Shown here in pieces: positions 2,163-64,000 of a stretch of 64,000 nt of DNA. The stretch spans positions 13,413 through 77,412 of the forward strand of contig WQYT01000001.1 in NCBI GenBank assembly GCA_009781115.1. Direction: 5' to 3'. Positions within the stretch are counted from its first letter, which is position 1. The number at the start of each line of letters is the position of its first letter. The notes beneath the pieces were generated by a model. The model was not told where the DNA came from. It ran no database searches and was given only the letters and a program-made list of their open reading frames with translations. The DNA comes from Coriobacteriia bacterium (GTDB lineage Bacteria > Actinomycetota > Coriobacteriia > WRKU01 > WQUG01). The position numbers and the translations under genes were made by a program.

Positions 2163-2776
2163 CTGCCGTCCAGCACTGAGGTTGCCCCTCCGGGCAGGTG
2201 GCGGGCCAGAAGGCGAGCGGTTGCCAGGGCGACAGCGGCTTTGATGAGGTCGCCAGCAATGAAGGGCAGGACGCCGGCGATCAGGGCGGCGGTAAGCGGC
2301 AGATGCGTACTGGCGGCAAGCCAGAGTGTGCCGAGCGCGTCAACAATAAGGATCATCGCTGCGGCTGCCAGGACCTCCCGCCAGAGGCGGCGGCGTCCGG
2401 CGCCCCGGGTGTCCCGGACGCGGCGCCCGGCGCCGGTGGCCCGGGTGCCCCAGGCAGGACGGCCCGCGATAAGCGCGCCAAGACCAGCCGCGATCACAAA
2501 AGCGATCAGATAGCCGCCGGTCGGGCCGACGAGCACCGCCGCTCCCCCTTTGCCGCCGGCAAACACCGGCAGGCCGAGGGCGCCCAGCGCAACATAGCAC
2601 AGCATGCTCGCCGTCGCCCAGCGCGGACGGAGCAACAGCGCCGCCAAAACCACAAAGAAGGTCTGCAGAGTCAGCGGAACAGACGCGGGCAGCAGGGCCG
2701 CAATCCAGGATGTCACCGCCAAACAGGCCGCGATGAGCGCGGCGACAGTCAGCTGCCGGATGCGATCAGATCTCAT
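2159..2776 (-). CDS. bioY: Biotin transporter BioY (ECF S-component)
   Basis: LTLQTFFVVLAALLL...LGLPVFAGGKGG...GPTGGYLIAF BioY signature; RBS GAGGAG before ATG at 2776. Confidence 0.8.
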   Translation of the reverse strand: MRSDRIRQLTVAALIAACLAVTSWIAALLPASVPLTLQTFFVVLAALLLRPRWATASMLCYVALGALGLPVFAGGKGGAAVLVGPTGGYLIAFVIAAGLGALIAGRPAWGTRATGAGRRVRDTRGAGRRRLWREVLAAAAMILIVDALGTLWLAASTHLPLTAALIAGVLPFIAGDLIKAAVALATARLLARHLPGGATSVLDGS

Positions 2777-2857
2777 GAAAGCTCCTCATCTGGCAGGCGG
2801 CGCGCCGGGTCGGCACGCCCTACGCATTGATGCATGCCATTGCTCATCTGGCAAAAC

Positions 2858-2889
2858 GGTGACAAACACCCCCTGGGGTGTTTGTCACC
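2858..2889. repeat. 32-bp palindrome GGTGACAAACACCCC-ct-GGGGTGTTTGTCACC overlapping the birA stop, upstream of bioY
   Basis: Direct read; family copies at 44824-44852, 53501-53529, 53440-53470 (variant) and 5204-5248 (half-site variant). Confidence 0.7.
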
Positions 2890-4165
2890 TGTCATCCCAG
2901 GACCGGATGCGCTCAAGCAGCGGCGGGAACAGCCACTCGGCGACGTCTTCTGGGGTTGGGTTCTTCAGCGCATCAGACAGGTAGGCGGCCCCCTCAAAGC
3001 CCTGCCGCTGATGGCGCGGGCGGCGTACATTTACGCCAACCCCAATGATCAGCCATCCGTCCTGGCCGCTTGCTTCCAGCAGAATGCCCGCCAGCTTGCC
3101 GTCCGGCGCATACAGGTCATTGGGCGCCTTGACAAAAAGCCCCTCGACCCCCTGCGCGGTCAAAACCTCGCAGAGCACCTGCGCGCTGAGCAGCGAGAGC
3201 TCGCTTTGCTCAGAAACCGGGCGCTGCGGCCAGTACAGCAGGCTGGCGTACAGCCCGCCTGCGGGCGATGTCCACGAGCGCTGGAACTGCCCCCGCCCTC
3301 CCGTTTGGGTGCGCGCGATGACCAGCAGCGTATCGCCTGGCTCTGCCTGGCTCTGCCCCGATCTCTGCCCCAGCGCTGTCCCCTGGCTCTGCCCGCTCGC
3401 AATCAGTTCTTTGAGGTAATCATTGGTTGAAGCCAGGCGATGGACGCTCGTGATTTTGGTCAGCCGGGCACGCTCGCGCAGGGCCATGAGGCGACGCCGG
3501 CGCTCCGCAATCTGTTTGACCATGAGAGCGGCAAAAACGGCCAGCGCAATGAGCAGAACCACTCCAAAGATGCCCAGGCCAGAAAAGAGGTCGCTTGCCA
3601 GGGCGGCGTTGCGCATCAAAAACCAGCCCACCAGCGTCAGCACCAGGGTATAAAACGAGCTGCCCAGAAACAAGTTCAGTAAAAAGCGCGCATACGACAT
3701 GCGCAGGGCGCCTGCGACCGGCGGCACAAAGGCCTTCATGCCATAGATGAAGCGCGCCGAGAGGATCGTGACCGTGCCATGCAGCTCAAAGTACTCCTTG
3801 AGGTCATCGACGATACCCGGATCAACCCGCATGAAGCGCGGCAGTCTGAGCCCGTTGTAGCGGACCAGGAAACGGCGCAGGCCCTCGATGCCAAGCCGGC
3901 GCCCGGTCAGATACATCGCGGTAGAGCCGATCAGCGAGCCTGCCAGCGCCAGCACAAACACCCACAGAAGCGACACGTGTTGACCAACCGCCACAAAGGC
4001 GGCGGCCGCGATGATGACCTCGCCAGGGGTAACCAGGCCCACAAACGGGATCGTCTCTGCGATGGTCAGCACAAGCAGCACAAGCAGACCCCAGGGGAGA
4101 AAATAATGCGCGATCCAGGAGTAGATCGGGGCGATGGGCGTCAGTATCTCGGGGATGGACGACAT
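2885..4165 (-). CDS. birA: DedA-family membrane domain fused in-frame to group-I biotin-protein ligase (BirA catalytic domain)
   Basis: N-terminal ~215 aa has DedA/TVP38 motifs (GEVIIAAAAF...; RFIYGMKAFVPPVAGALRMSYARFLL...GWFL). C-terminal part has ASTNDYL and the GRGQFQRSW biotin-ligase motif. There is no stop codon between the two domains. RBS GGAGG before ATG at 4165, which overlaps the panC stop (ATGA). Confidence 0.75.
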   Translation of the reverse strand: MSSIPEILTPIAPIYSWIAHYFLPWGLLVLLVLTIAETIPFVGLVTPGEVIIAAAAFVAVGQHVSLLWVFVLALAGSLIGSTAMYLTGRRLGIEGLRRFLVRYNGLRLPRFMRVDPGIVDDLKEYFELHGTVTILSARFIYGMKAFVPPVAGALRMSYARFLLNLFLGSSFYTLVLTLVGWFLMRNAALASDLFSGLGIFGVVLLIALAVFAALMVKQIAERRRRLMALRERARLTKITSVHRLASTNDYLKELIASGQSQGTALGQRSGQSQAEPGDTLLVIARTQTGGRGQFQRSWTSPAGGLYASLLYWPQRPVSEQSELSLLSAQVLCEVLTAQGVEGLFVKAPNDLYAPDGKLAGILLEASGQDGWLIIGVGVNVRRPRHQRQGFEGAAYLSDALKNPTPEDVAEWLFPPLLERIRSWDDR

Positions 4166-8331: not shown

Positions 8332-10325
8332 CAGGCTCCCACGGGGGCAACAGCGCCTGTTGAAGGCGGCAACGGCAGGTCCGCAATCGCATCAGCGCTG
8401 CTGGCGCTGTCCACAGACGGCGTGTCCTTTGGCTTGTTCTTATCCTGGGCGGCTTTGGCTTTGGCCTGCTCTTCTGCCAAAAACTCCTCCCAGCGGCCTT
8501 CAAAGACAGCCTTCAGGGCGTCGCCTTCGAGCGTCTCGCGCTCGATGAGCAGCTGCGCCATCAGGTCAAGCATGTCATGGTCCTTCTTCAGGATGCCCCG
8601 AGCTTTGGCAAAGCCCTCGTCGATGATACGCGCGGTCTCGGTATCAATGATCGTCGCGGTCTCATTGCTGTAGTCATTGTGCTGCGCCAGGTCGCGGCCC
8701 AAAAAGACGTCGTGGCTCTGCTCTGCAAAGGCGCGCGGCCCCAGCGCATCGCTCATGCCAAAGCGCGTCACCATGTCGCGGGCCAGTTTGCTGGCGCGCT
8801 CGATATCGTTGGAGGCGCCCGTGGTCACGTCGCCGATGGACATCTCCTCAGAGGCACGCCCGGCCAGGAGCACGGCGATGTCGTCAAGCATCTCTGCCTT
8901 TGACTGCAGGAAGCGGTCCTCCGTGGGCAGCTGCCAGGTCGAGCCCAGGCTGCCGCCGCGGGGGATGATCGTGACCTTGTGGACCGGGTCAGAGTTTGGC
9001 AGGCGATGGCCCACGATCGCATGACCCGACTCATGGTAGGCGATGGTCTTTTTCTCTGCGTCAGAGATCAGGCGGCTCTTGCGCTCCGGGCCCATCATGA
9101 CGCGGTCTGAGCCTTCCTCGATCTCTACCTGAGTGACCTTCTTCTTGCCGGCGCGCGCCGCAAGCAGCGCGGCCTCGTTAAGCAGGTTGGACAGATCTGC
9201 GCCTGTAAAGCCCGGCGTACGCCGTGCGATGACGCCCAGATCGACCTCATCGGCAAGCGGCTTATTCTTTGCGTGAATCTTCAGTATCTCCTCGCGGCCC
9301 CGCAGGTCAGGACGATCGACCACGATCTGGCGATCAAAGCGCCCCGGACGCAGCAGCGCGGGGTCAAGCACGTCGGGGCGATTGGTCGCCGCGATCATGA
9401 TGACGTTATCCTGCGGCTCGAAGCCGTCCATCTCTACCAGCAGCGCGTTTAAGGTTTGCTCGCGCTCATCATGGCCACCGCCCAGCCCGGTACCGCGCTG
9501 GCGGCCCACGGCGTCGATCTCGTCAACAAAGATGATCGAGGGGGCAGAGGCCTTGGCCTGCTCAAAGAGGTCGCGCACGCGCGAGGCGCCCACGCCCACA
9601 AACATCTCGACAAAGTCAGAACCGCTGATGCTGAAAAACGGCACGTCGGCCTCGCCCGCCACGGCGCGCGCCAGCAGGGTCTTTCCCGTGCCGGGAGGGC
9701 CCACCAGCAACACGCCCTTGGGGATCTTGGCGCCCAGGGCCTGGAAGTGCTCGGGCAAAGACAGGAAGTCCTTGATCTCGCCCAGCTCCGCAACGGCCTC
9801 CTCCTCGCCGGCCACGTCTTTGAACGTGACTTTCTGCTTCTGGGGATCGGTCATCTTGGTGCGCGCGCGCCCAAAGTTCATCATGCGCGCATTGCCGCCC
9901 TGCATCTTGAAGATGAAAAAGAGCAGCACCCCGCCAACGATCGCCAGCAAAACAATCTGCCCCAGGATGCTCCAGACTGCGTTGGTGTCCGCGTTGTTGA
10001 CCGAGAATTTGCCGCTCAGGTTATCCTGCGCAAAGGTGGTAAACGAGTCGGCGCCCGCCCAGGTTGAGGTAAATTTCTTGACGCCCTTATCTTCTTTCTG
10101 GTCCGCGGTTGTTGCCCAGTACTGGCCCGAGAGCGTGCCCGCGTTGGGCTTGTATTCAGCGCTCTTGATCCGCCCCTGCTTTGCCGCGACCATAAACGCC
10201 CCGGTCGAAAGCTTAGTGGGCTGCGTATTGGCCGAGTTCACCCGGTTGACGACAACAATCATCAAGACGAGTAACCCGACCAGATAGAGGAAGGTGATTC
10301 CGAGATTTTTTTTCTTGCTGTTCAA
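8331..10325 (-). CDS. ftsH: ATP-dependent zinc metalloprotease FtsH
   Basis: Walker A GPPGTGKT; SRH region; HEXXH (HESGHAI); two N-terminal TM helices. TTG start with AAAGGAG RBS. Confidence 0.95.
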
Positions 10326-10377
10326 CGATGTGACTCCTTTAATAGCGTCGCTGCGCCGCCCGGGTCTTGCCCCCGAT

Positions 10378-11070
10378 TTACTCGGCGTAGAGCGCTGGTT
10401 TTAATATCCCGATATAAGGTAGATTACGGTAGTGCTGCGCATAATCCAGCCCATATCCTACAACAAAAGCATCCGGAATCGTGAAACCTACATATTGCAC
10501 GTCAAGAGGGACCGCCTGCGTGCCCTCCTTAAGCAGCAGCGTTGCAATGGCAATGCTGGCCGCGCCGCGCCCGTGGAAGTTGCGCGCCAGATACTTAAGC
10601 GTCAGCCCGGTGTCGAGGATGTCTTCTAAGATGATGACATGGCGATCGGTAACCGGCTCATTGAGGTCCTTGATGATGCGCACCACGCCGGAGCTCCGGT
10701 GCGCATCCCCATAGCTGGAGACCGCCATGAAGTCCATGGTCAGCGGGCAGTCGATCCTGCGCGTCAGATCGGTCATGAAGTACACGGCGCCCTTCAGGAC
10801 ACCGATGAGCAGGGGGTTTTTGTCCGCGTAATCCTGCGTGATGTCTGCCCCCATCTGCGCGATACGACTGGCGAGCTGCTCTTTGCTGATCAGCACGCTG
10901 GTAAGATCGCCGTGCGGCGAAGGCTGCTCATCAAAAGCCGCAACCGCCGGTGTTGGATGAATGAATTCCGGAGAATCTGATGACGAGGGCTTCTTACCAA
11001 AAGCCGCAGCCGCAGATGTTGGATGAATGAATTCTGGAGATTCAGATGACACAAGTACTTCTTTCCTCAT
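10378..11070 (-). CDS. hpt: Hypoxanthine-guanine phosphoribosyltransferase with N-terminal duplicated low-complexity extension
   Basis: [23 protein letters not shown]...[15 protein letters not shown]...[14 protein letters not shown] PRTase motif. N-terminal [12 protein letters not shown] occurs twice, from a ~48-bp DNA tandem duplication. Confidence 0.8.
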
Positions 11071-12594: not shown

Positions 12595-12684
12595 ACTCTA
12601 GAGTATAAAGCATCCACCCCTCATCACTGCGAGCACGGTAGTTCCTGCACATTGACGCTCATCATGACCGCACAAGGAAAATAA

Positions 12685-13440
12685 CTACACTGGGATTCTT
12701 TCACGTAATACGAAATTGATAATAATGAAACTCAAAATAACAAAGATAGCCGCAGCGATTACGAGAGCATGATAGGTAGGTCGATTGAGAGATATTGGTT
12801 TTTCTCTTTTCCTGTTAAAGATAACTATGCACAACGCAAACACGCAACCAAAGAAAAGTAGATAATGGGGCCAATAGGACACAATGGCCTCCTTAATAGT
12901 AAGAATCAGGCCTGAATAATTGAGGTCTTCAACAATTATATGAAACGACCAAGCAAAACGGCAAATGAAGGCGACAATGCTGCCTACCAAACAGCTCAAA
13001 GGATACGGTTTGCAAATAATGCTTGTTCCAAAAACAAACCCAATAGTAAAAACAGCAAGACCGCCTAATACATATGCAAACGTCGGAAATACAAAAACTG
13101 AACCGGGCAGCGTGGCAACTTGAAATAGGTCGAACGCAACATGAAGAAAAATCATGCAAAGAAAGGCAGCGGTACCAAAAACAGCAGGCAAAGCAAATCT
13201 CTCAAATACAGACGAAAGCTCCTTCTGCTGAATAGTATCGCAATCACCAGCATGCTCAATACTACCTGATTTCGAACTACCTTCTCTTTTACCTAACATT
13301 GGAAACCTCTCTAAAAACATATGCAGAAGCTTATTATAACGAAACATAGGAACTGAGTAACCATAAGCAGTCGCTTTAGCGAATTTCAGGTTGCCCTGAC
13401 CGTCATAAGTAGTGATGACATCATTAAATGAGACAGGCAT
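12685..13440 (-). CDS. Hypothetical polytopic membrane protein (AT-rich island gene)
   Basis: ~5 predicted TM helices; low GC; N-terminus contains TTYDGQGNL, resembling a YD-repeat fragment. Start 7 nt after the upstream gene stop. Confidence 0.5.
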   Translation of the reverse strand: MPVSFNDVITTYDGQGNLKFAKATAYGYSVPMFRYNKLLHMFLERFPMLGKREGSSKSGSIEHAGDCDTIQQKELSSVFERFALPAVFGTAAFLCMIFLHVAFDLFQVATLPGSVFVFPTFAYVLGGLAVFTIGFVFGTSIICKPYPLSCLVGSIVAFICRFAWSFHIIVEDLNYSGLILTIKEAIVSYWPHYLLFFGCVFALCIVIFNRKREKPISLNRPTYHALVIAAAIFVILSFIIINFVLRERIPV

Positions 13441-13447
13441 ATCTAAG

Positions 13448-14116
13448 TCACTTCTTGATATTGGCGTTCTTCACAAGCTGTGCCACCAGCGCATCTATAG
13501 CCGTTGAGCGAGCATCGTTAAGGTAGTCTGCCTTGATTTCATCTTTCAGTTCTTCAAAGCTCCCGGCTCCTGCATAGCGATCCTTATGCGAGTTATAGTA
13601 GGCTTGCAGCTTTGCGTCAGAAGCTGAAGAATCAGGAACAAGGGATTTGGTAAGCGCAGCTATCGTCAGGTTATCAGCAACAGCGGTCTTGAGTTGCGCC
13701 TCTGTCATTCCTGCCTGCTTGAGTTTATCCTGCAATTGAGCGTCAGTACCATAGCTTTTAGCCAGCGAGCTATACGCTGCATCAATAACTTTGCCAGAAA
13801 TTTTAATCCCCTGCTTCTTGGCTTCCTGCAATAAAAGCTGTTGGTTGATAGCAGCATTCAGATTACGCTGATCAACATCCTGCTTACTTGCCGCTCCTCC
13901 ATTAGCATCAAAGATATCGGGAGTCTGCGAAAGTGGGAAAGCAGTCTGCTGATCAATATCTGCCTGCGTAATAGCCACCCCATTGACCTGAGCTACTGTC
14001 TTTGTATGTTGGCGCAGAAGCAGATAGGCAGTAAGAGCGCCTGCAGCAAGAACGACTATCGCTATTGCAACAACAATCCATTTATTGCGTTTGTATGATA
14101 CCCGTTTCTTTTTCAT
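13448..14116 (-). CDS. Membrane-anchored SurA_N/PrsA-like (chaperone-like) protein
   Basis: Start at MKKKR (ATG 14116) preceded by GGGAGG RBS; single N-terminal TM helix; VNGVAITQADIDQQ resembles the SurA N-domain; low GC. Confidence 0.55.
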   Translation of the reverse strand: MKKKRVSYKRNKWIVVAIAIVVLAAGALTAYLLLRQHTKTVAQVNGVAITQADIDQQTAFPLSQTPDIFDANGGAASKQDVDQRNLNAAINQQLLLQEAKKQGIKISGKVIDAAYSSLAKSYGTDAQLQDKLKQAGMTEAQLKTAVADNLTIAALTKSLVPDSSASDAKLQAYYNSHKDRYAGAGSFEELKDEIKADYLNDARSTAIDALVAQLVKNANIKK

Positions 14117-14157
14117 GTGGTTGCCTCCCAATTATTATCATGCTTAACAGGTATTGA

Positions 14158-15015
14158 TTAAGGCCAGTCTTTTGGGTTTATTGAGGCAACTCTATCATCT
14201 GGTGTTTCGTAGATATCACCTACCACAAAATTCTGTCTTTCTTTTTTATACGCGATATCTACAATGCCGTCTCTTGTCACATGTGCAGAATAGCATCGAT
14301 ATTCTGGGGAAAACACCGCTATGCTTATATTTTGAACATAGTAATTTGGCGTTGCTGCGTCACAATCAAAAAAGTTGATCTTTGTTGCGGGGTCAACCCT
14401 TTCGACATCCACGAGGGTGGAGCTTCCTTTCACAAAAGTGTCAAAATCCCGAAAACGTAGTGTCTTTCCGACAAACATACAACCAGCCGCTTGGTATTCG
14501 CCAGAGCTTGCTTGAGTGTAAAATACAAAAAGACGCCCACCAGACAAGCTATCATGCGCGCTGTAAGCCCATGAGCCACTATACGGCCCATCACTTATAC
14601 TGAAAGGTCGTAATTGAGAGACAGATACAAAACTCCGCACGTCATTGAGCGTGACTTCATGACCCGCGGAATCAAACGCACCTTCGAATGTTATCTTCCG
14701 CATAAGACCGAGTATATTTGTTTTACTCTCCCGAGAGGCCAACAATGCCCGATTAGGATCTCTCGCAACAGTTGGTGTTGACACAGTAGATTCTATAGAT
14801 TCGCTTTTCTGTTTTTCATTTGACACCTGATTCTTCTCTGCCCTGTTGTCTTTGCCCGGGCCTCCACATCCAGATGAAAGTATCATCAACAGTAAAATAA
14901 TTATGGCTCCCGTTCTTGCAATTTTCACAATCACACCGCCACGATATCTCGTCTTACGGAACAACTCTTGCTCCAGTTCGCTTCCCGCACCATCAAACAT
15001 TTCACACCATCCCAT
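14158..15015 (-). CDS. Putative lipoprotein, candidate immunity protein for the upstream RHS toxin
   Basis: Signal peptide with lipobox LSSGC; low GC; begins 63 bp downstream of the RHS stop on the same strand. Exact start codon uncertain. Confidence 0.5.
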   Translation of the reverse strand: MGWCEMFDGAGSELEQELFRKTRYRGGVIVKIARTGAIIILLLMILSSGCGGPGKDNRAEKNQVSNEKQKSESIESTVSTPTVARDPNRALLASRESKTNILGLMRKITFEGAFDSAGHEVTLNDVRSFVSVSQLRPFSISDGPYSGSWAYSAHDSLSGGRLFVFYTQASSGEYQAAGCMFVGKTLRFRDFDTFVKGSSTLVDVERVDPATKINFFDCDAATPNYYVQNISIAVFSPEYRCYSAHVTRDGIVDIAYKKERQNFVVGDIYETPDDRVASINPKDWP

Positions 15016-15078
15016 CTGTCACGTTCGGCAAAGCGTATATTAACACCAATACTCTACAGCCTTTATCGAGAAAACGCA

Positions 15079-18000
15079 CTATTGCCGCTTAAATTTTATC
15101 GCTAAATAAAGCGTCTTGCTATTGTAAATTATTCCGCCATTGTTTCCATAATTCTTACCCCATACATCGGGATTCACGCTAAAATTATGATACTGAATTT
15201 CGGATATCGGACTTGAGATATGTCCATGTTTTTCTGACCAATAGCCATAGCCATGAGTATCTTGTTTCATAAAATGAAAATCAAACGAACATACTCTTAT
15301 TGCGATTCGATATTCGTTACTATATGTTGAAGCGTTTTTGCCTGAGATTGCTCTTGCTTTGCTACTACCTACTTGTTTGATGACTGTTTTTCGAAAATTT
15401 TCCACAGTAGATAAAGAATCATTAGGATATTTACAACCTGAATGGATATTCATAGCATATGAATAGCAATTAAAATTAGCGGTAGGCTCATTAATCCATC
15501 CCCATGTTTTTGGTCCAACAATCCCATCAACAATCAACCCATTCATCGATTGGAATTTCTTTACCGCAGCTAGCGTATTTGTCCCAAAAATACCATCCTC
15601 TGCCAAAGCCTTGCCGTTTGAACCCCGTACTGTAAAGGTATTCAATCTCCTCTGAAGCTTTTTTACAGTTGCTCCTTGACTACCATATCTCACCGTGGAA
15701 TCAAGCCCGCTCGGATCCGTACCGCCCACCGGCTCTCCCGCACAATACATATACGGGCTCTTCTCGCCGTCTGCTTTGACAGGATCGCGGCTGATGAAGC
15801 TTGCGGTGGTCGGGTCATAGTAGCGTTGGCTGCAATAGTACAAGCCAGCCTCAGCATCCCAAACATAGCCCGCATAACGCAGAGGTTGTGCTGCTGATAT
15901 CTGCTGAGCCAGATCAAGGGCAATAAGCGATGTTGCAAATTCTGTGTCGGAAGTAATGTTTCCAAAAGCGTCATAGTCGTAGCGAGCAAAGGTATCCCCA
16001 TTGGTGTCTCTAAGCTCGCGTACGTCTCCTCTGGCATCACTGACAATCTCGAAGTTTACTGGAGCTGTCGTCGCAGTCGTAGTAGTGCTGTAGCAAGCCC
16101 CAACGGGTGTTGAGCCTGATCCATACAGATAGATGATGCTTTGAGTCTCTGTAGAAGATTTTGCGGCTAGCGAGACAAGCTTGGTACCGTCATAGAGGTA
16201 GTTGGTAGTATTGTTTCCTGCCGTCTTTGAAAGCCTCTGGCCTTCTGCGTCATAGGCGCAGGTGAACTTCGCAGGCCCGGTACCGCCATAATATCCTGAA
16301 ACCAGTCTCTGACCAGACCAGCCATAGGTGACCCCATGGTCATCTGATATTCTTCTGCCAAGCCCGTCATAGTTAAAAGAAAACGCTGTCGATACTATAA
16401 AGCCACCGCTACTTGAAGTACGTCCGGCAAGCCTTCCTGCCGTATCATAAGAGTAACTTGTCGCGCCTGCTTGAGTAATATCTCCGGTTGTCGCATTGTA
16501 AGCATAAGCCGTTGTAGTACCGCTCACTTTTGCCGAGGCAAGCTGGGTTCTGTCTGCCGAGTAGGTATAGCTGGCAGACTGAGCACCTAAGCGGCTATAG
16601 CTTGAAGATGTCAACTTTGAGTCATTAGCATCATAAGTATATGTTTTTTGTCCTGGTGCAGAAAGATTAGTGTCGCCTGTCAGGTTACCCTGACTGTCAT
16701 AGCTAAGCTGAGAGCTTTGGGCGCCAACGCTTCTGGCAGTCGGTCTTCCACCCTCGTCATAGCTGGTGTTTGCAGCACTTAGACTTGAACCAAACTTAGG
16801 AGTAAGCGTATCAGAAGCAAGAAGCGCTCCGTTGACAATGCTTGTCTGTGTTGTGCCGTCAGCGTAAGTCTCAGTCTTAGTCGTTACCGTCTGCGCGTTG
16901 ATTCCTGCCCCTGTGTTTTGGTAGGTAAAAGCCTGCTTGTAACCAGATACTGACTCATCGATTACGCTGGGGCGCCCTGCGCTGTCAAAGGTAGTGGCGA
17001 TATCTTTGAGCACCACTGTGTCTTTCAGTTCCTTTTGCTCAGTTATTCTTGAAAGGCCATCGTAAGTATAGTCAACCTCTGTGCCATCGGGATTGACCTG
17101 CTTGGTTACCCTTGAAGCATTATCGTAGGTCGTAGTAGTAGGATCATCGGCTCCGACTTTCTCGGTAAGCTGGTTGCCCGCCCTATCATAACTGTAAGTA
17201 GTAGTAACGCTATCAAAGTCAGTTTTTGAGAGAATATCTCCGCGTACATTGTAGATATTGGTAGTAGCCGTCTGCGTTCCCATTTTTGTGGTAAGCAAGC
17301 GACCAGCTAAGTCATAGGTAGAGACAGTCGTTATATCAGGCTTGCCAGAGGCGCTTTGCTTATCGGAGATAACGTTGCCAACCAGATCGTAGTCGCAGGT
17401 ATCAGTCACGCCACCATTTGTTTGTGTTATAGCATTACCCGAAACATCATAGGTCGTGCTCTGATCAGGTTGCCCCGTGGTTTTAGTTGAGGTAACGTTT
17501 CCGGCTGCGTTATAGGTTGTTGTAGTTGGCGCGCTATACGGGGTAGTAGTCGTGCCAAGCACATTGCTGCTTTGTATCTCTTGACCAGATGCATCATATT
17601 TGGTCGTTGTAGTCACTCCGTCAAGAGTTCCTTCGGATTTGGCTTGAATAACGTTTCCTGCCAGGTCACAGGTCGTAACACTTGCGCCTTGCTCCGAATT
17701 TGAGTCTGAAACAGCTTCTCTCCCAAGAACGTCATGAGTCATGGTCGTGATCTCAACGGCTGTTCCCGCACTATCAAGACTTGAAGCAGTAAGAGTGTTT
17801 CCTTGTGCGTCGTAGGTAGTCTTTGTCCAATTTGATTTGACAGACGAACCAGAAGGTAGCTGGTAAGTTTCGGTCACATTACCCAAGTTGTCATAAACAT
17901 TGGTAGTAACAAGCCCGGTCTTATCTGTTGAGGTAAGCAGAGAGCCTGCAACGTCATAGGTCGAGGTATCGGTGATAATCCCGCGCCCATCAGTATTTGA

Positions 18001-21000
18001 GAGTCTGTTGCCACAGTCATCAATGGCGCAGCTCGTGGTGATATCTTGCGGCGTAGCGCTTGTTGCCAGCTGCACTGAATGCTCAATGGTTTTCTGGGAG
18101 TTCCCGTCACAAGCGAAGTCTGAGTAATCCTTGATATCGAAGATATAGGAACCATCAGCATTCTTAGAGAGGGCAGTCTTTTCCTGAGTAGTAAAGCCTT
18201 GGGTGTTGTAGCTGTATTCAGTGCGCTTGCGCGCCCCATTGGCAGCAATCAGCTTTTCTGTCACAAGTATGTTTCCTTTGCTGTCAACGTCATTCCAGGT
18301 CACAGCTCGGGCGTTATCGATCATCTTAATCAGGTCGTTTGCGCTGTTGTAGTAGTACCAGGTCTCAAGCCCTGCCTTGTCGAGAGCGTAAGTCTGATTT
18401 CCCCTGCTGTCATAATCTGACTTGGTGGCGCCTGCCACCCCTACTGAAGCGGGGCAATTAGTAAAGGTAAGCCCATCGGCAGATGCAGATACCGGGTCTT
18501 TAGTCACGATGACCTGGTTGTAGGCATTGTAACTGGTATTTGTTCCATAAAGCTGGTCGACCGAAGCAGACGCCCATATCTCCTGCCCTGTTGGATCAGT
18601 AAGAAATACCTGTCTTTCTTGCCCGGCAGCAAAGCCACCTTGAGCTGTGGCCGAGCCTTTGTCCAATACAGCCTGGCCCACATTGGTTGAGCGCTTGGAA
18701 TAGGTCATGGTAGCAGGAGCAGGCGGGGCGCCTGAAGTGGTATGAGCAAAGCTCACTGAAGCGGTACCGTAAGTGATCGTAGCGCTGTCTTGTCCCCTGC
18801 TGACAGAGGTGATGCGCCCGGAAGCATCTGAAGTAAAGGTGTCGGTGACTTCCCGTGGGCTGCCTTCATATTCAGTCACGGTCATATTGTTGCCACTGAT
18901 TGCATAGGTAAAGGTCTTTGAAGCAGATACGCCTTCTAAGGTGAGGGTATAGCTTGTTGCAGAGTCCTTTGCCAGCTCCAACTTCTGCCCATTGGCAGCC
19001 GTGATGATAGCTCCTCCCGATCCATAACTGTAGGTAGTTTTGTTGTTATTGCGATCACAATCTGAAGTGATCTTTCCGTCAGATCCAAAGAGATGCTGGG
19101 CTCCATCGGCATCCTTTAAAGTGAACCCTGAACTTGTTTTTGTCAGTGTCGAGAACATGCCGGCAGGTGAGAGGTAGGTATCCGTGTTCTTGGGGTCCTG
19201 AGCAAAGAGAATGACCGTTCCGGCGCCATCCGTATACTGTACAGCACCCGTAGAAAGCGTAGTCATATTCTGCTCAAAGCTAAAACGCCAGCCTTTAGGA
19301 AGATAGCTTGAGGTAGAAGCCATATCTGAGAGGTAGGTACGGCTTACTGCGGCAGCAGGACCATAGGTAGCGATCGTAAGGTCGTCAGAGATGATACGGG
19401 TAGCCGCTCTGCCCTCTGCGGCCTCAACAGATTGCCCTGCAACAGTTCCTAACTGCGTATAGCCCGGGTTGGGATTATCAGACACTCTGACGGTACGGTT
19501 ATCCAGCGTGGGCGATACCACACTCGCAGAATAGACGGCGGTCTCTCCATTGGCGTCATAGGCCGCTACCCTGAACCAGTAGTTGACGTTGTTTTGATAG
19601 GTGGTCGTCTTTGATTTGCGATAGATCGCATTAGGGTTATCACGCAGATCAAGTCCGGATCCTGCAAAGGTATCGACATTGGTTCCGCTTGAGAGGTTGC
19701 CGCCAATAAAGCGCTTGGAGGTTGCGTCATAGCTAAACGACACCATGCACTTGGTAGCCTGGTCTGACTGGAGCCATGAATCAGTAAGCAAGTGGCTGGA
19801 TAGCGAGACTTTGTAGGTACGCGCAAGGTTAGTGCTCGTCCATTCCATCAGATAGAGGTTATATCCATCGGAGGTCACGCTGTCAAAGCTTCCAAAGGCT
19901 GTGGTGTTTGCTACAGAGATACTCCAGTCCTTTTCGAAGTGCCCGGTATCGTTGTATTGACGCACGCTGAATCCCTGACCCACTTTGCCTACTGAATAGA
20001 TATGGGCGCCATCACTGGTAAGCATCACCCCATAGCCAGTAGTTCCTGCTGCGATATCAGTACCCGCACTATAGCTGAGCAAAGGTTTATCAAAAGTGAA
20101 GCTTAAGCGACGCGCTGTAGTACTTTCAAAGGTTGATTCCGCGTAGGCAGCGATAGTGGTAGCGTTTGCTGTTGATGCTGTGATGGCGCCGTCATAGAGG
20201 ACCCCGTTAAGTACAAAGGCGCCAAGAGACTGCGGAACGCTGTCTGTAGTGCCTAAGATAACGGGACTTCCATAGGCAGGTTTTGCGTTTGGATAGTTTG
20301 TCTGGGTAAAGCGTACCCATTTGGCAGGTCCTTTGTAGGCGCCCCAGGCTTTGACATAGATGTACTTGCCATCAGGCACAACAATTCCGGAACCTCCGGA
20401 ACCCCCGTTGGTTCCGGTGGTATAAGGGGTTCCTGCTGGATAGGTAAGCGTAGCAGATGAGACTCTGGTTGCAGGGCTGGGACTTTGGCCTGCTGTGTAG
20501 GGGTTACCGGCATAAGTTCCATCTGCCCCATAGCCAGCTACGGTAGTATCGGTGGGATATAAGCCTGCGCCAGACGTTGACCAGGTGATGTTATTGCGCC
20601 CGAGCGTAGTCCCTACCTGACGATAGCTTACCCCATCATAGGTATAGATATGATAACCCGTTGCGTGAGAGTCAGCGCTCCATGAGAGCTTGACCGACCC
20701 CCTGCCGGCATCAGGATAGTCGTTTTTGTTATCAGCAACGCCATCTTTGTTCTTGTCGGTCTCTTTGAAGTAGGCGCCACTGGCTGAAGTTGTAGCGGAC
20801 AGGTTCTTTACGGGCTGCACCAGAGAGGAGCAGGTGATCGTGATATAAGGGGCATTGCCGCCAGCCACAGAAGAAAAAGCATGCCAGTTATTAGTAAGCG
20901 GTGTTGCCTCGGACTCATAGAGCACCAGCCCATAGAAAGCTGTACCTGAGGTAAGCGGGCCGGTAAGCGTTGATGTGATGTCATAGGTGGCCCACAGGCT

Positions 21001-22308
21001 TGTTCCGGTAATAGATGTCGAAGCAATCGCCGAAGACATCGCTGGTTTGTTGTTCCAGTTTACGTTGGTAGGAATAGCAGCTGACGCCTGAGCAAGATAG
21101 CTTGTAGCAGCAGCCGTAGTGAAACAGCGGGTTTGATAAGCGCTGAAGGTGACTTTGCTGACTGAGACCCCCGCCAGATTAGGCAGAGCATCAAAGGTGA
21201 TATAGCTACGGTATTTATTGCCCGTTGAGGTAGTACAGCCAGCAAGAAGTTCTGTTTGATGAAGCGTGGTAGTGGGGCTCACCGAGTTGACGCAGGCATC
21301 TGCAGCCACCGCAACGGTAGCCGTTGGATCGATCTTTACCGGCCATGCACGGTCTTTTGAGCCGAGCCAGTCTTCATTAATAGTAGCCCGAAAACGAGCA
21401 GAAGCCGCAGAAGAAGACAGGAGCTCCCAGGAAGTGTTGGGACAGATGCTACTGCCCGCTTGTCCTGTGCCTGAATCTTCTACAACCAGATCAGACAGCA
21501 AATAAGCGACGCTGCCGTCTGCTTTGACTAACTCCCACGTACCTTTATCTTGCTTAAGACTCAGTCCTGAGAAATCAAGCCTGAAGTCATAGGTGTTTTT
21601 AGTAGTGGGGGTATTAAGGAGCAGGGTCTCTTTTACTCCGCCTGAAAGCGCTTGATATTGCAGGGTGGTGTTGCCTGTCGGGTCAAGGTAGACGGCAGTG
21701 TCACCCAACGTTAAAGGTGAAGAAAGTTGTTGTCCGCAATAGGTGAAGGAGACGCTATAGGGAGCAGATGACGTTGTGTCCGCCGATATAGTTGCCGCTC
21801 CTGTTCCTGAGGCAGAAAAGGATGTCTTATTTTCAGTGGAAAGGGTCGTAACAGCGCCAACCGGAGAATCAGAACCTGATGCAACTAAGTTCGTCGAAAT
21901 GTCTACAAACTGATTATGATCGCCTTTGTAATGAATATCTCCTGTGGAAGCTACTATCTGTCGCTGACCATCAGAAAGCTCATAGGTCTTAGTCGTAGCA
22001 GTACGCTCTTCGATGATCTCACGCACACGTTTAGCATGGGGATCCTTAACTTGAGGTTTTACAACAGCGGCAGGATCAGGAATAGCGTCAGCGGGAGCAG
22101 TATAGGTAGCTTCACCTGAGCCAAGAGGAGGGGTGGAAGCTTCCTGAGAAGGAACAGCAGTGCTCTCATGTGAAGCCGCCACAGCAGAAGCAGGAATGAG
22201 CGCCAGAAGGAGAACGGCAGAAAGGAAAAAACATAACAACCTGCGTAAAGGACTGGTAAAACAGCCCTCGTCAAATGTAGGCACCGACAACTGATTTGTT
22301 TTCTTCAT
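15079..22308 (-). CDS. Sec-secreted RHS/YD-repeat polymorphic toxin (2409 aa) with C-terminal peptidoglycan-binding domain plus Cys/His toxin-like domain
   Basis: N-terminal signal peptide; dozens of YD repeats (YDxxGN, YTYDGLSRI...); RHS core terminates PVGGTDPSGL (DPxGL). A 207-aa tail follows: PG_binding_1-like (LQRRLN...DGIFGTNTLAAVKKFQ...DGIVGPKTW) and a 137-aa Cys/His domain (NCYSYAM...HGYGYWSEKHGH). AAGGAAGG RBS. GC markedly lower than flanks, lowest in the tail. Confidence 0.9.
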   Translation of the reverse strand: MKKTNQLSVPTFDEGCFTSPLRRLLCFFLSAVLLLALIPASAVAASHESTAVPSQEASTPPLGSGEATYTAPADAIPDPAAVVKPQVKDPHAKRVREIIEERTATTKTYELSDGQRQIVASTGDIHYKGDHNQFVDISTNLVASGSDSPVGAVTTLSTENKTSFSASGTGAATISADTTSSAPYSVSFTYCGQQLSSPLTLGDTAVYLDPTGNTTLQYQALSGGVKETLLLNTPTTKNTYDFRLDFSGLSLKQDKGTWELVKADGSVAYLLSDLVVEDSGTGQAGSSICPNTSWELLSSSAASARFRATINEDWLGSKDRAWPVKIDPTATVAVAADACVNSVSPTTTLHQTELLAGCTTSTGNKYRSYITFDALPNLAGVSVSKVTFSAYQTRCFTTAAATSYLAQASAAIPTNVNWNNKPAMSSAIASTSITGTSLWATYDITSTLTGPLTSGTAFYGLVLYESEATPLTNNWHAFSSVAGGNAPYITITCSSLVQPVKNLSATTSASGAYFKETDKNKDGVADNKNDYPDAGRGSVKLSWSADSHATGYHIYTYDGVSYRQVGTTLGRNNITWSTSGAGLYPTDTTVAGYGADGTYAGNPYTAGQSPSPATRVSSATLTYPAGTPYTTGTNGGSGGSGIVVPDGKYIYVKAWGAYKGPAKWVRFTQTNYPNAKPAYGSPVILGTTDSVPQSLGAFVLNGVLYDGAITASTANATTIAAYAESTFESTTARRLSFTFDKPLLSYSAGTDIAAGTTGYGVMLTSDGAHIYSVGKVGQGFSVRQYNDTGHFEKDWSISVANTTAFGSFDSVTSDGYNLYLMEWTSTNLARTYKVSLSSHLLTDSWLQSDQATKCMVSFSYDATSKRFIGGNLSSGTNVDTFAGSGLDLRDNPNAIYRKSKTTTYQNNVNYWFRVAAYDANGETAVYSASVVSPTLDNRTVRVSDNPNPGYTQLGTVAGQSVEAAEGRAATRIISDDLTIATYGPAAAVSRTYLSDMASTSSYLPKGWRFSFEQNMTTLSTGAVQYTDGAGTVILFAQDPKNTDTYLSPAGMFSTLTKTSSGFTLKDADGAQHLFGSDGKITSDCDRNNNKTTYSYGSGGAIITAANGQKLELAKDSATSYTLTLEGVSASKTFTYAISGNNMTVTEYEGSPREVTDTFTSDASGRITSVSRGQDSATITYGTASVSFAHTTSGAPPAPATMTYSKRSTNVGQAVLDKGSATAQGGFAAGQERQVFLTDPTGQEIWASASVDQLYGTNTSYNAYNQVIVTKDPVSASADGLTFTNCPASVGVAGATKSDYDSRGNQTYALDKAGLETWYYYNSANDLIKMIDNARAVTWNDVDSKGNILVTEKLIAANGARKRTEYSYNTQGFTTQEKTALSKNADGSYIFDIKDYSDFACDGNSQKTIEHSVQLATSATPQDITTSCAIDDCGNRLSNTDGRGIITDTSTYDVAGSLLTSTDKTGLVTTNVYDNLGNVTETYQLPSGSSVKSNWTKTTYDAQGNTLTASSLDSAGTAVEITTMTHDVLGREAVSDSNSEQGASVTTCDLAGNVIQAKSEGTLDGVTTTTKYDASGQEIQSSNVLGTTTTPYSAPTTTTYNAAGNVTSTKTTGQPDQSTTYDVSGNAITQTNGGVTDTCDYDLVGNVISDKQSASGKPDITTVSTYDLAGRLLTTKMGTQTATTNIYNVRGDILSKTDFDSVTTTYSYDRAGNQLTEKVGADDPTTTTYDNASRVTKQVNPDGTEVDYTYDGLSRITEQKELKDTVVLKDIATTFDSAGRPSVIDESVSGYKQAFTYQNTGAGINAQTVTTKTETYADGTTQTSIVNGALLASDTLTPKFGSSLSAANTSYDEGGRPTARSVGAQSSQLSYDSQGNLTGDTNLSAPGQKTYTYDANDSKLTSSSYSRLGAQSASYTYSADRTQLASAKVSGTTTAYAYNATTGDITQAGATSYSYDTAGRLAGRTSSSGGFIVSTAFSFNYDGLGRRISDDHGVTYGWSGQRLVSGYYGGTGPAKFTCAYDAEGQRLSKTAGNNTTNYLYDGTKLVSLAAKSSTETQSIIYLYGSGSTPVGACYSTTTTATTAPVNFEIVSDARGDVRELRDTNGDTFARYDYDAFGNITSDTEFATSLIALDLAQQISAAQPLRYAGYVWDAEAGLYYCSQRYYDPTTASFISRDPVKADGEKSPYMYCAGEPVGGTDPSGLDSTVRYGSQGATVKKLQRRLNTFTVRGSNGKALAEDGIFGTNTLAAVKKFQSMNGLIVDGIVGPKTWGWINEPTANFNCYSYAMNIHSGCKYPNDSLSTVENFRKTVIKQVGSSKARAISGKNASTYSNEYRIAIRVCSFDFHFMKQDTHGYGYWSEKHGHISSPISEIQYHNFSVNPDVWGKNYGNNGGIIYNSKTLYLAIKFKRQ

Positions 22309-22377
22309 GAGCTATCCTTCCTTAGACGAACTCTTTTACACAGATATAGTAGTAAGAAAAGAGGTTATCTGAACAGT

Positions 22378-22423
22378 GTGAAATCACCTGATTTTCGGAA
22401 TTAGCAAATTCAGGTGATTTCAC
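22378..22423. promoter_or_regulatory. Perfect 14-bp inverted repeat with 18-bp spacer (GTGAAATCACCTGA-N18-TCAGGTGATTTCAC) upstream of the RHS gene
   Basis: Arms read directly at 22378-22391 and 22410-22423. Lies 70-115 bp upstream of the RHS ATG, just upstream of a TACTAT/TATATC -10-like region; adjacent LuxR regulator gene. Confidence 0.4.
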
Positions 22424-22479
22424 CTGTATCAAAAAAGGCTCCGCTGGTCGTATTTGGGAGAATTACATAAGCTGCTTGC

Positions 22480-23868
22480 TTAAAGTTCGCCGTTGCGGAA
22501 CTTATTAACCAGCATAATGCGATTTCTTGAACCTGTTTTTGATAAGAGCGAATTGACATGGTTTTGCACCGTGGTTGTCTTAACGCCCATTACTGCAGCG
22601 ATCTCCTCGGTGCCTTTACTGTTGGCAAGCAATTGCACGACCTCTAATTCTCGACCGGTAAACGAGGTTTTTGTTAAAACAGTTTGCTTATGTTCAGTAA
22701 CTTCCGGCTGATTCTTCTGCGGCAAAGCATCCAGGAAAATCAGAAGCACAAATACCAAAACCGCAAAAAGGATAATGGTTAACGGCAACAGAAACTCTGC
22801 CCGCCTGGCAAAGTCTGCCACTGAAAGCCCCAGCACATGCAAGTTTAAAAAGCCCTCACTGGAAAAATACACGAGCAAGCCCAAGCCTGCAATGAAGCCC
22901 TTATGCGAACGCCGCGCAGCCGCGATCATACAAAGAATATGGATAAGAAACACACAGCCTTTTACCCCAAGGTTGAGCAATAGATAAGCCATATTGTTTC
23001 CCGGAGAGTCCCCGTAAAGAAAAAGGGGCAGAAGGCAGCCCAACACCAGCAAAACAATCGGGATAGCCATGTTCAGTATACTGAATCGCTTATCTATCAA
23101 ATACCCTAAAAGAGCGCCAAAGGGAATGCGCAAAATGATAATGACCAAATAAAGGAACGGTATGCTTGCTGTCCCCCCTTGCTTTTCTAACGTTCCTGAA
23201 TTCATCACCTGTCCCAAAAGAACCAGGATGGTGAGCCCAACCAATAAAAGACCCAGACTACGCGAAGCCAAAACTCTCGATTCCAATGGATCTGGACTCC
23301 CTACGTCTTCGTTGCTTTTTGGCCAAAAATAAAACGCCGCAGATAAAAGCACCACCAAGATAAGAAACCCTATCGTAGTGATGGGTGTCTTTGGAAGAAG
23401 CGCCGATAAAAATTGGTAACCAAGTTTGAAGGGATATATCGCAAGAGAATAGAGGCTTGCAGAAATGCCGATTTTCAGCCCCCGGTTTCGCGCGTCGCCA
23501 CTTTCAAGGAAACTCACCAGCACCGCACAAACAAATAGTCCAATAATAATACCAAACCCGACAGATAGGACGATCAAAAACGACGTCCCTTGAAATGCAA
23601 GCATCCCGATACTGTATATCAGCAAAAGAATCGGCGCTAGGCCACGATAGGCGCGACAAAACTGTGGGTAGAAATGTTCAAGTAGCCCGTAAAGCAAAAT
23701 CCCCAGAGGAATCAGCTGTAGCGTAGCGTTTCCTGCAGCACTGAAACGCCCACTGGTTACATAAATAAGCTCGGCAGCGATGCCAATCGCTACCATCGAT
23801 AGACAGAGCGCTAAGAAGGGGTGATTCTTTTTACTTTTTAGCAAAAGGAGGGATTTATCGCTATCCAT
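22480..23868 (-). CDS. LuxR-family transcriptional regulator with ~10-12 TM N-terminal membrane domain
   Basis: C-terminal HTH (LEVVQLLANSKGTEEIAAVMGVKTTTVQNHVNSLLSKTG); long hydrophobic N-terminal region; AT-rich. Confidence 0.8.
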   Translation of the reverse strand: MDSDKSLLLLKSKKNHPFLALCLSMVAIGIAAELIYVTSGRFSAAGNATLQLIPLGILLYGLLEHFYPQFCRAYRGLAPILLLIYSIGMLAFQGTSFLIVLSVGFGIIIGLFVCAVLVSFLESGDARNRGLKIGISASLYSLAIYPFKLGYQFLSALLPKTPITTIGFLILVVLLSAAFYFWPKSNEDVGSPDPLESRVLASRSLGLLLVGLTILVLLGQVMNSGTLEKQGGTASIPFLYLVIIILRIPFGALLGYLIDKRFSILNMAIPIVLLVLGCLLPLFLYGDSPGNNMAYLLLNLGVKGCVFLIHILCMIAAARRSHKGFIAGLGLLVYFSSEGFLNLHVLGLSVADFARRAEFLLPLTIILFAVLVFVLLIFLDALPQKNQPEVTEHKQTVLTKTSFTGRELEVVQLLANSKGTEEIAAVMGVKTTTVQNHVNSLLSKTGSRNRIMLVNKFRNGEL

Positions 23869-24031
23869 CTTTCTCTCTCCGTTTCATCTATTTTAGAATT
23901 TTAATTTCAATATCGAGTTTTTTATTAAATCTTATTATAAAGCTTTACGTTCAGATAAAACAATTCAAATAGTCAACGGCTGGATTGCGGCGTCGCGCAT
24001 TGATGGGGATCTTTTGCCAGCCCAAACGAGC

Positions 24032-24056
24032 GACGCGCCGGGTCGTCGCGCCCTAC
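24032..24056. repeat. REP hairpin copy plus adjacent GCATTGATGNGGGTCTNTTGGCAG direct repeats (23996-24140)
   Basis: Direct read. Confidence 0.6.
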
Positions 24057-24182
24057 GCATTGATGCGGGTCTGTTGGCAGCCCCAAGCGCATACATTAAT
24101 GCGGGTCTCTTGGCGGGTCAGACGCGCGCATTGATGCAGAGCAGTTTCCCGTGCCAAAGCTAACATGAATTAATGTAGCTTA

Positions 24183-26762: not shown

Positions 26763-26778
26763 TGCCACTCCTACCAAA

Positions 26779-27050
26779 GGCGCGCCGGGTCGTCGCGCCC
26801 TACATGGTCGTTGCCAAGACCGAGTCGGTTGCCCAGTGCCGACGGCCCATGGTCGTTGCCAGGACCGAATCGGTTGCCCTACCAGAAGCGCGCCGGGTCG
26901 TCGCGCCCTACATGGTCGTTGCCAAGACCGAATCGGTTGCCCAGTGCCGACGGCCCATGGTCGTTGCCAGGACCGAGTCGGTTGCCCAGTGCCGACGGCC
27001 CATGGTCGTTGCCAGGACCGGGTCGGTTGCCCAGTGCCGACGGCTTTGCC
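26779..27050. repeat. Tandem array (~5.3 copies of a 45-bp unit ATGGTCGTTGCCARGACCGARTCGGTTGCCCAGTGCCGACGGCCC) with two embedded REP hairpins
   Basis: Units begin at 26804, 26849, 26912, 26957 and 27002. REP GCGCGCCGGGTCGTCGCGCCCTAC at 26779-26803 and 26888-26912. Overlapping ORF-track peptides (GRCQDRVGCP repeats) come from these DNA repeats. Confidence 0.75.
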
Positions 27051-27140
27051 AAGTGCTGCCGCTCCGGCTGACGCCAGATTATAGTATAAACGAGCTCCCC
27101 ATTGCTGGAGAGCTCGTCCTCACTCGTGATAATGAGCATC

Positions 27141-63989: not shown

Positions 63990-64000
63990 CTGAAAGGTTC

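Follow-up and report, generated by a model that had tools for sequence, protein, structure and literature searches.

Within a 64,000-nucleotide stretch of a Coriobacteriia metagenome-assembled genome (contig WQYT01000001.1; the whole stretch is referred to below as the window), the region from 12685 to 15015 is best explained as a whole as the 3' end of a horizontally acquired RHS toxin cassette of the Sec-type (WapA-like) class in a monoderm bacterium, a reading to which we give a probability of roughly 75%. The gene that follows the RHS toxin gene encodes a lipoprotein that is very probably its cognate immunity protein, and the pair represents two undescribed families in a familiar toxin/immunity arrangement. 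The first-pass annotation had proposed an immunity role for this lipoprotein from its position and its lipobox, and the proposal is now strongly supported, because the same toxin domain precedes the lipoprotein family in eight independent loci, on two unrelated delivery scaffolds (RHS and RicinB-lectin). The features that carry the argument are the following.

15079-22308, minus strand: RHS/YD polymorphic toxin of 2409 aa, from Pfam matches and reading of the open reading frame (ORF)
15703-15732, minus strand: RHS core-end autoproteolysis motif PVGGTDPSGL, aa 2193-2202, the single match to P....[DE]P.G[LW]
15496-15678, minus strand: PG_binding_1 domain in the released tip, aa 2211-2271 (1.8e-14, 54.1 bits, cut-off 23)
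15082-15495, minus strand: C-terminal toxin domain of ~140 aa with NC2281YSYA and DFH2345FMKQ, from the family alignment
14158-15015, minus strand: predicted cognate immunity lipoprotein, longest ORF, from lipobox, homology and linkage

The linkage was examined from both sides. On the toxin side, a metagenome scan with an alignment of the toxin domain gave eight loci and look-ups of three representatives gave more; homology among the lipoproteins was tested by tblastn and with a hidden Markov model (HMM) built from three, then five, family members. Among 5.8 billion proteins, the window lipoprotein (MCL2654105.1, locus tag FWD65_00140) had a single homolog besides itself, P0002, which is 40% identical and is also a lipoprotein (LLSGC). 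The P0002 gene, in locus L001, lies 65 bp downstream of a gene fragment ending in an RHS core end, PG_binding_1 and the toxin domain, the last with 50% identity to the window domain. The remaining loci with both partners were as follows.

L004/L005: full RHS ortholog, 58.7% identity; lipoprotein of 44.7% identity after a 30 bp gap
L008: RHS carrier; lipoprotein with HMM E 3e-8
L009: RHS carrier; lipoprotein gene with a frameshift, its two frames scoring E 3e-6 and 6e-3
L012: RHS fragment; 460-aa lipoprotein, the C-terminal half 42% identical over 239 aa
L017: 810-aa RicinB-lectin toxin, not RHS; lipoprotein after a gap of 3 bp, matching the profile along its full length at E 6e-12
L018: RHS carrier; lipoprotein with E 6e-12, downstream of four small paralogous proteins with transmembrane (TM) segments

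The lipoprotein gene directly follows the toxin gene in seven of the eight loci (the window, L001, L004/L005, L008, L009, L012, L017 and L018) and comes after the four small genes in L018. These four, at 2056-3598 of that locus, are arranged in tandem and encode membrane proteins of 90-96 aa with 2-3 TM segments, and the L018 lipoprotein has an extra TM segment at its C-terminus. Thus, when homologs were sought beside other RHS or toxin genes, they were found for the lipoprotein. The two possibilities that would have spoken against an immunity role, namely a conserved core gene or a protein with a clear enzymatic annotation, were also looked for, and neither was found; the family was never seen as an unlinked core gene. 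In the loci of more distant toxin variants (L002, L006/L007 and L010), the next gene encodes a lipoprotein or a signal-peptide protein with no detectable similarity to the family: BLASTP showed no similarity between the L002 lipoproteins and the window lipoprotein, and the two-round lipoprotein HMM did not recruit L002, L007 or L010. These downstream proteins were treated as non-homologous, or too diverged, occupants of the same position. The scan of a genome collection contributed one useful locus, L002; its match in an Opitutaceae genome (L003) was discarded as spurious, being short and in a non-coding frame. Locus L013, from the same sample as L012, holds an orphan 325-aa RHS end (10001-10978) with PG_binding_1 and a toxin domain reading GAHYMKQ, adjoining smpB; in both L012 and L013, a Peripla_BP-family gene follows.

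Co-occurrence proves functional linkage, not inhibition, and the lipoprotein could in principle be a helper of the toxin, such as a surface tether or a maturation or release factor, with self-protection conferred by wall modification or by one of the two membrane proteins encoded farther downstream. Against secreted Gram-positive wall hydrolases such as lysostaphin, protection comes from modified peptidoglycan and not from protein inhibitors, and the separation of toxin and lipoprotein by four small TM proteins in L018 also fits a helper. However, the lipoprotein goes with the toxin domain irrespective of the scaffold, being found with both RHS and RicinB-lectin carriers, while an export helper would be expected to track the N-terminal scaffold. 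Furthermore, the lipoprotein evolves faster than the toxin (40-45% identity versus 50-57%), and, in L004 as in the window, tip and lipoprotein together form a single trough of guanine-cytosine (GC) content between the higher-GC RHS core and the SurA_N gene that comes next. Tracking of the toxin domain, faster evolution and shared composition are hallmarks of immunity genes and therefore count against a helper function, which we regard as very improbable.

The sequence of the lipoprotein agrees with its assignment as an immunity protein displayed outside the cytoplasm. The lipobox LSSGC noted earlier is present, within ...LLLMILSSGC; its cysteine is residue 50 (codon 14866-14868), the hydrophobic segment spans aa 28-46, and LLLMILSSG-C50 fits, by reading, the PROSITE PS51257-type lipobox pattern. 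The reported gap of 63 bp from the RHS stop holds for the longest ORF (14158-15015). The true start is more likely the ATG at 15000, which is the public gene call and gives 280 aa, or the TTG at 14964, which has GGAG 8 nt upstream, and the gap would therefore be 78-114 bp. All members share the same build, in which a signal peptide and the cysteine are followed by a low-complexity linker rich in Ser, Thr, Glu and Lys and by a domain of ~200 aa; six of the eight homologs have a canonical lipobox. The lipoprotein has no match in Pfam, NCBIfam, PADLOC or the PDB.

The protein encoded upstream has the features of an RHS polymorphic toxin, as far as these can be read in silico: an RHS/YD shell, an autoproteolysis motif, exchange of scaffolds and a co-varying downstream gene. 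Pfam detects RHS_repeat (3e-13) and DUF6531, precomputed matches include CBM96 and TEN_YD-shell, 22 anchored [YF][DN]xxG repeats can be counted, and hydropathy indicates a signal-like hydrophobic segment at the N-terminus. Motifs of the PxxxxDPxGL type mark the cleavage site in RHS proteins. Past PVGGTDPSGL, GC falls from 0.50 to 0.37, and the remaining tip of ~207 aa (aa 2203-2409) consists of PG_binding_1 and the C-terminal domain of ~140 aa. The lipoprotein and the LuxR-type regulator encoded on the far side of the RHS gene have consecutive NCBI accessions, MCL2654105.1 and MCL2654106.1, and only JGI/ENA gene calls include the RHS protein; hence the public annotation seems to lack a protein for the intact 2409-codon ORF. 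The RHS protein was also not returned by a word-seeded search with the tip including PG_binding_1, the results of which were dominated by PG_binding_1 proteins with matches spanning about one third to one half of the query.

The toxin domain of the window has no sequence match in Pfam, NCBIfam or the PDB. An exhaustive phmmer search of 1.84 billion representatives defined its family as 41 representatives at E <= 1e-3, and in every one of them the domain is C-terminal, whether the carrier is an RHS protein, a RicinB-lectin protein or a short protein with a signal peptide. In an alignment of 19 sequences, C12, A16, H76, W88, K91, W114 and Y126 are invariant, and N11, D74 and Q80 are among the near-invariant positions. 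The confident AlphaFold2 model obtained from this alignment (predicted local distance difference test, pLDDT, 82.5; predicted template modelling score, pTM, 0.81) has a helix at 12-17 that begins at Cys12 and a strand at 75-80 that bears His76. The structures matched weakly by this model in Foldseek are mostly of the papain fold, comprising the C39 domain of PCAT1, TssM, Josephin and USP deubiquitinases, MepS and Tse1/Tae1; in the viral library, one unnamed match at 5e-4 was followed by papain-like viral proteases. Nine of the 19 members weakly match DUF7689 (best E 1.4e-4, one just above the gathering score), which is the only Pfam family matched within this set and is not matched by the window domain itself; a literature search found no paper mentioning DUF7689. 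Neither the window domain nor its 18 relatives match the NlpC/P60, CHAP or Tox-PL profiles of Pfam, and searches of the PDB with the toxin domain, the lipoprotein and both family profiles gave nothing below E 0.1. On the basis of the model and the conserved residues, the tip is read as a probable papain-like Cys/His hydrolase of an uncharacterised family with distant similarity to DUF7689. The cell wall is its likely target, as suggested by the PG_binding_1 domain fused to it, by relatives that bear a lectin and by where the immunity candidates are located. An immunity protein outside the cytoplasm, as envisaged when the lipoprotein was first noted, fits such a wall toxin, given PG_binding_1 within the cleaved tip, the RicinB-lectin relatives and the small forms with signal peptides.

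These features suggest how the pair might operate. The RHS protein would be exported, and its shell would enclose the ~207-aa tip, which would be cut off at PVGGTDPSGL and could then cleave peptidoglycan or a wall precursor at the outer face of the membrane. The lipoprotein, acylated at Cys50, would be tethered to the outer leaflet of the cytoplasmic membrane, with the flexible Ser/Thr/Glu/Lys-rich linker holding its ~200-aa domain outward, where it may bind and block the toxin domain. In this manner, it could neutralise both the cell's own copy of the toxin during export and the copies arriving from sibling cells. The tip and the lipoprotein appear to behave as one low-GC cassette that has been swapped between delivery scaffolds.

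The wider locus bears on the cassette as a whole, and its remaining features are these.

22480-23868, minus strand: LuxR/GerE-type regulator with multiple TM segments, in the same low-GC island at its upstream end
14124-14129, minus strand: ribosome-binding site of the SurA_N gene, GGGAGG, 7 nt upstream of its ATG
13448-14116, minus strand: membrane-anchored SurA_N-domain protein, 222 aa from the ATG, from Pfam
12685-13440, minus strand: ORFan protein of 251 aa with five TM segments (5-TM protein), from hydropathy
13387-13413, minus strand: YD-repeat-like motif TTYDGQGNL, aa 10-18 of the long 5-TM ORF, from a six-frame scan and a position-specific scoring matrix (PSSM)

From the ORFs of the window, the order on the minus strand is thus the LuxR/GerE regulator, the RHS gene, the lipoprotein gene, the SurA_N gene and the 5-TM gene, past which lie the core genes tilS, hpt, ftsH, folE, folP/folK and panB. 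The three genes downstream of the RHS gene had been described as AT-rich, and this is borne out by the comparison of GC per gene with the flanks. The island, at ~12600-24000, has a GC content of 36-52% versus ~63% on either side; by gene, the values are 0.40-0.51 within it (5-TM 0.40, SurA_N 0.47, lipoprotein 0.44, RHS core 0.50, with the RHS tip at 0.37) and 0.62-0.66 outside it (tilS 0.66, ATPase flank 0.62). No convincing att-like direct repeats were found at the island borders, and readings as a phage or a defence system were dropped, since PHROG-type and PADLOC signals were both lacking and the surroundings are those of a toxin cassette. No terminator-like sites were found on the minus strand between the RHS, lipoprotein, SurA_N and 5-TM genes. 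The DNA corresponds to ENA contig ERZ27257292 k141_1100863 of 82,736 bp. Between the regulator gene and the RHS start, at 22378-22423, lies an 18-nt inverted repeat with 94% complementarity and a 10-nt spacer (GTGAAATCACCTGATTTT / AAATTCAGGTGATTTCAC) and no T-run, which could be an operator for the LuxR-type regulator or the terminator of its gene. The high-GC edge of the island (23996-24157 and ~26620-27210) has a repeat of ~31 nt (CGCATTGATGSGGRTCT..TTG.CAGCCC.AA) in four copies, and spurious ORFs at ~26.6-27.2 kb translate to reiterated peptides (GRCQDRVGCPVPTAH), which suggests a related intergenic repeat of the host.

The SurA_N gene is less firmly tied to the toxin than the lipoprotein gene. 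The GGGAGG ribosome-binding site and the membrane anchor attributed to its product are both present, the latter as one N-terminal hydrophobic segment at aa ~14-32 from the ATG, and the protein matches SurA_N_3 with 57.6 bits (cut-off 27.2) and SurA_N_2 with 34.2 bits (cut-off 28.5). A parvulin peptidyl-prolyl isomerase domain was not found: Rotamase_2 matched only in part (profile positions 2-61 of 121, E 0.04, 15.2 bits versus a cut-off of 27) and the NCBIfam isomerase equivalogs scored far below their cut-offs. Solved SurA structures align weakly to the protein over the N-domain. In L004/L005, a homolog with 55.6% identity over aa 6-86 follows the lipoprotein gene after 41 bp, in an island that adjoins formate-dehydrogenase (fdh) genes and not tilS; retention of the gene after the lipoprotein in different flanks indicates that it is part of the cassette, not of the host's flanking DNA. 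The proposal that SurA_N is an accessory gene therefore gains synteny in one further orthologous locus, but an IS66-family insertion interrupts the copy there near codon 95, leaving the RHS and lipoprotein genes intact. Two IS66-family elements, with 516-aa transposases and small tnpA/tnpB-like ORFs, occupy L004 8566-12908 and L005 9171-13513 and replace whatever lay past the SurA_N homolog.

It is thus conceivable that neither SurA_N nor the 5-TM gene is functionally linked to the toxin, both being passengers of the island, either general envelope-maintenance genes or decaying cargo. The IS66 insertion is what would be expected of a passenger, as is the finding that neither gene accompanies the toxin/lipoprotein pair in L001, L008, L009, L012, L017 or L018; moreover, SurA_N domains are widespread housekeeping modules. 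Against this, the succession of RHS, lipoprotein and SurA_N genes recurs, with 56% identity, in other chromosomal surroundings, the gaps are tight (~41 bp from the lipoprotein gene to the SurA_N ATG at 14116 and 7 bp between the SurA_N and 5-TM genes) and devoid of terminator-like sites, and export and anchoring genes have a precedent at the RHS/WapA locus of Streptococcus suis (a SecF-like protein and SrtB; PMC12704120). We therefore consider the passenger explanation a real but minority chance. We place SurA_N with the RHS backbone of the cassette, which its RHS-core-like GC fits, and our best guess, from one extra locus and by analogy with the accessory genes of the S. suis WapA locus (PMC12704120), is a dedicated folding role, most plausibly as a membrane-tethered holdase that would aid the giant RHS protein after Sec translocation. 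A more general version of this idea, which we think quite unlikely, is that Sec-exported RHS toxins of monoderms may carry their own membrane-tethered, parvulin-less SurA_N mini-chaperone at the translocon, possibly with the 5-TM protein as a membrane platform. It would receive the unfolded RHS chain of ~260 kDa and aid assembly of the shell around the wall-degrading tip, and would be the Gram-positive counterpart of the Eag/adaptor chaperones of RHS effectors of type VI secretion systems (T6SS).

For the last gene of the cassette, the five TM segments predicted at first are seen as hydropathy peaks at aa 83-109, 124-142, 148-170, 190-208 and 226-244, and the motif TTYDGQGNL is indeed present near the N-terminus. 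An ORF of 251 codons has an estimated chance of ~2e-7 in DNA of ~40% GC. The motif had raised the idea that the gene is the remnant of an orphan RHS C-terminal (RHS-CT)/immunity module, that is, a membrane immunity gene whose toxin has been deleted and which has kept a fragment of one YD repeat, either fused in frame or in its 5' leader. The motif is unusual: of nine YD..GN occurrences in all six reading frames of the window, eight fall in the RHS gene and one in the 5-TM ORF; a PSSM made from the repeats of the RHS protein itself puts the site second among 65,654 non-RHS windows free of stops; and the DNA at the motif matches the RHS gene near 16701 in 20 of 22 nt (E 0.025). In addition, the GC of the 5-TM gene is like that of the toxin tip and differs from that of SurA_N and of the RHS core, translation from an alternative start, M48 (13297-13299), with AGAGG 6 nt upstream, would leave the motif untranslated, and genuine orphan RHS-CT arrays, with small downstream genes, do follow the toxin/lipoprotein pair in the related loci L008 (2321-5420), L009 (1279-3616) and L016 (2941-6609), where they exemplify true orphan modules of this toxin family. 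However, the ORF lacks both a PxxxxDPxGL core end and a toxin domain and does not match Pfam RHS_repeat even at E <= 10, the case is built on one 9-aa motif picked out post hoc, the real start could be M48, an unrelated site at 62975 scores equally high, and there are no homologs by which linkage to toxins could be judged. The remnant origin is therefore not established and, despite the unusual motif, is unlikely, as the features that define an orphan RHS-CT module are lacking. The 5-TM protein is a lineage-specific membrane protein, possibly a stranded membrane immunity protein. The site at 62975 belongs to a large minus-strand ORF (62621-63998) that runs off the window end and holds the only non-RHS site equal to the 5-TM motif in the PSSM; its C-terminus, ...LGLPDAGDAASFLAPVLLLMAGVGAAGVCALRRRRLG, looks like a sortase-type sorting signal (LPxAG, hydrophobic stretch, basic tail).

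Several observations weigh against the interpretation of the region as a WapA-like cassette with a wall-directed toxin. The L013 toxin-domain copy is the only one with no lipoprotein downstream; the near-invariant Asp that precedes its catalytic His is replaced, and it is possibly an inactivated toxin. Two of the homologous lipoproteins have imperfect lipoboxes (LLPGC and LTEC), and the structure model of the window lipoprotein, made from a two-sequence alignment, reaches a pLDDT of only 35. Foldseek found no close structure for the toxin model (best E 0.06, TM-score <= 0.42, weak values), and the window domain has no Pfam match of any kind; because these matches are weak and a Pfam family is lacking, we infer the peptidoglycan target from fused and neighbouring domains only. 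The IS66 disruption of SurA_N in L004/L005, along with its absence from all the other loci fetched (L001, L008, L009, L012, L017 and L018), implies that this gene is dispensable or lineage-specific. Finally, the 5-TM protein has no homologs besides itself (on the same contig and in the matching short-read assembly), and its tblastn search gave no match in any fetched locus.

If the interpretation as a toxin/immunity cassette is correct, its value lies first in function. The toxin domain, predicted to be papain-like, is distantly related to DUF7689, the lipoprotein has no relative in Pfam, NCBIfam or the PDB, and their pairing gives both a testable function. Known toxins of Sec-type (WapA-like) RHS systems of Gram-positive bacteria are mostly cytoplasmic nucleases, and the present pair would add to these systems, in Gram-positive gut bacteria, a wall-directed toxin neutralised outside the cytoplasm. 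Lipoprotein immunity is almost absent from the 2012 catalogue of polymorphic toxins (PMC3482391). The SurA_N module borne by the cassette is a lead that deserves follow-up, since the link, if true, would give a clue to the way in which giant RHS shells are folded extracellularly in monoderms.

Among known systems, WapA/WapI of Bacillus subtilis, a Sec-exported RHS toxin of a monoderm bacterium with its immunity gene, is a close parallel. Like the window system, WapA of B. subtilis and of S. suis is a large RHS/YD protein with an N-terminal signal and no PAAR or T6SS adaptor, and it has a cleavable polymorphic C-terminal toxin with the immunity gene directly downstream. WapA toxins, which are tRNases and nucleases, act in the cytoplasm of the target, and their immunity proteins are cytoplasmic; in contrast, the tip in the window is PG_binding_1 with a predicted papain-like hydrolase, and the candidate for immunity is a lipoprotein predicted to lie outside the cytoplasm. 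Accessory genes for export and anchoring also occur at the WapA locus of S. suis (PMC12704120), but the accessory gene of the window encodes a SurA_N module and not a sortase or a SecF-like protein. PpiD resembles the SurA_N protein in its N-terminal membrane anchor and a SurA_N domain above the Pfam threshold. Unlike SurA, PrsA and PpiD, however, the window protein lacks parvulin, is half their size (222 aa) and is encoded in a toxin cassette.

For the toxin domain itself, RHS-borne papain-fold toxins (Tox-PL1) with an 'NC, H, D' signature were listed in the 2012 catalogue, which gives no immunity family for Tox-PL1 and names Imm65 as the only lipoprotein immunity protein (Zhang et al. 2012, PMC3482391). 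The window family has a similar signature, in which H is invariant and both N-C and D are nearly so, but it does not match Tox-PL in Pfam, its sole Pfam relation being the marginal one to DUF7689. The Tae1/Tse1-Tsi1 systems likewise pair a papain-fold Cys/His wall enzyme, here predicted, with a neighbouring extracytoplasmic inhibitor, here a candidate, and Tse1/Tae1 are among the weak Foldseek matches of the toxin model (E 0.6, TM-score ~0.37). They differ in that the window toxin has no NlpC/P60 or CHAP sequence membership and that its delivery would be by an RHS protein with a Sec signal in a monoderm, and not by T6SS into the periplasm. In TelC-TipC of Streptococcus intermedius, the toxin, an LXG substrate of the type VII secretion system and a lipid II phosphatase, acts at the outer face of the membrane and is met by a membrane-tethered immunity protein that faces outward. 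The window pair, which has no sequence relation to it, shares this combination of a Gram-positive outer-face toxin and tethered immunity. Taken together, these parallels suggest a system that would work like a WapA-type RHS toxin/immunity pair, with the amidase/immunity logic of T6SS moved to a monoderm.

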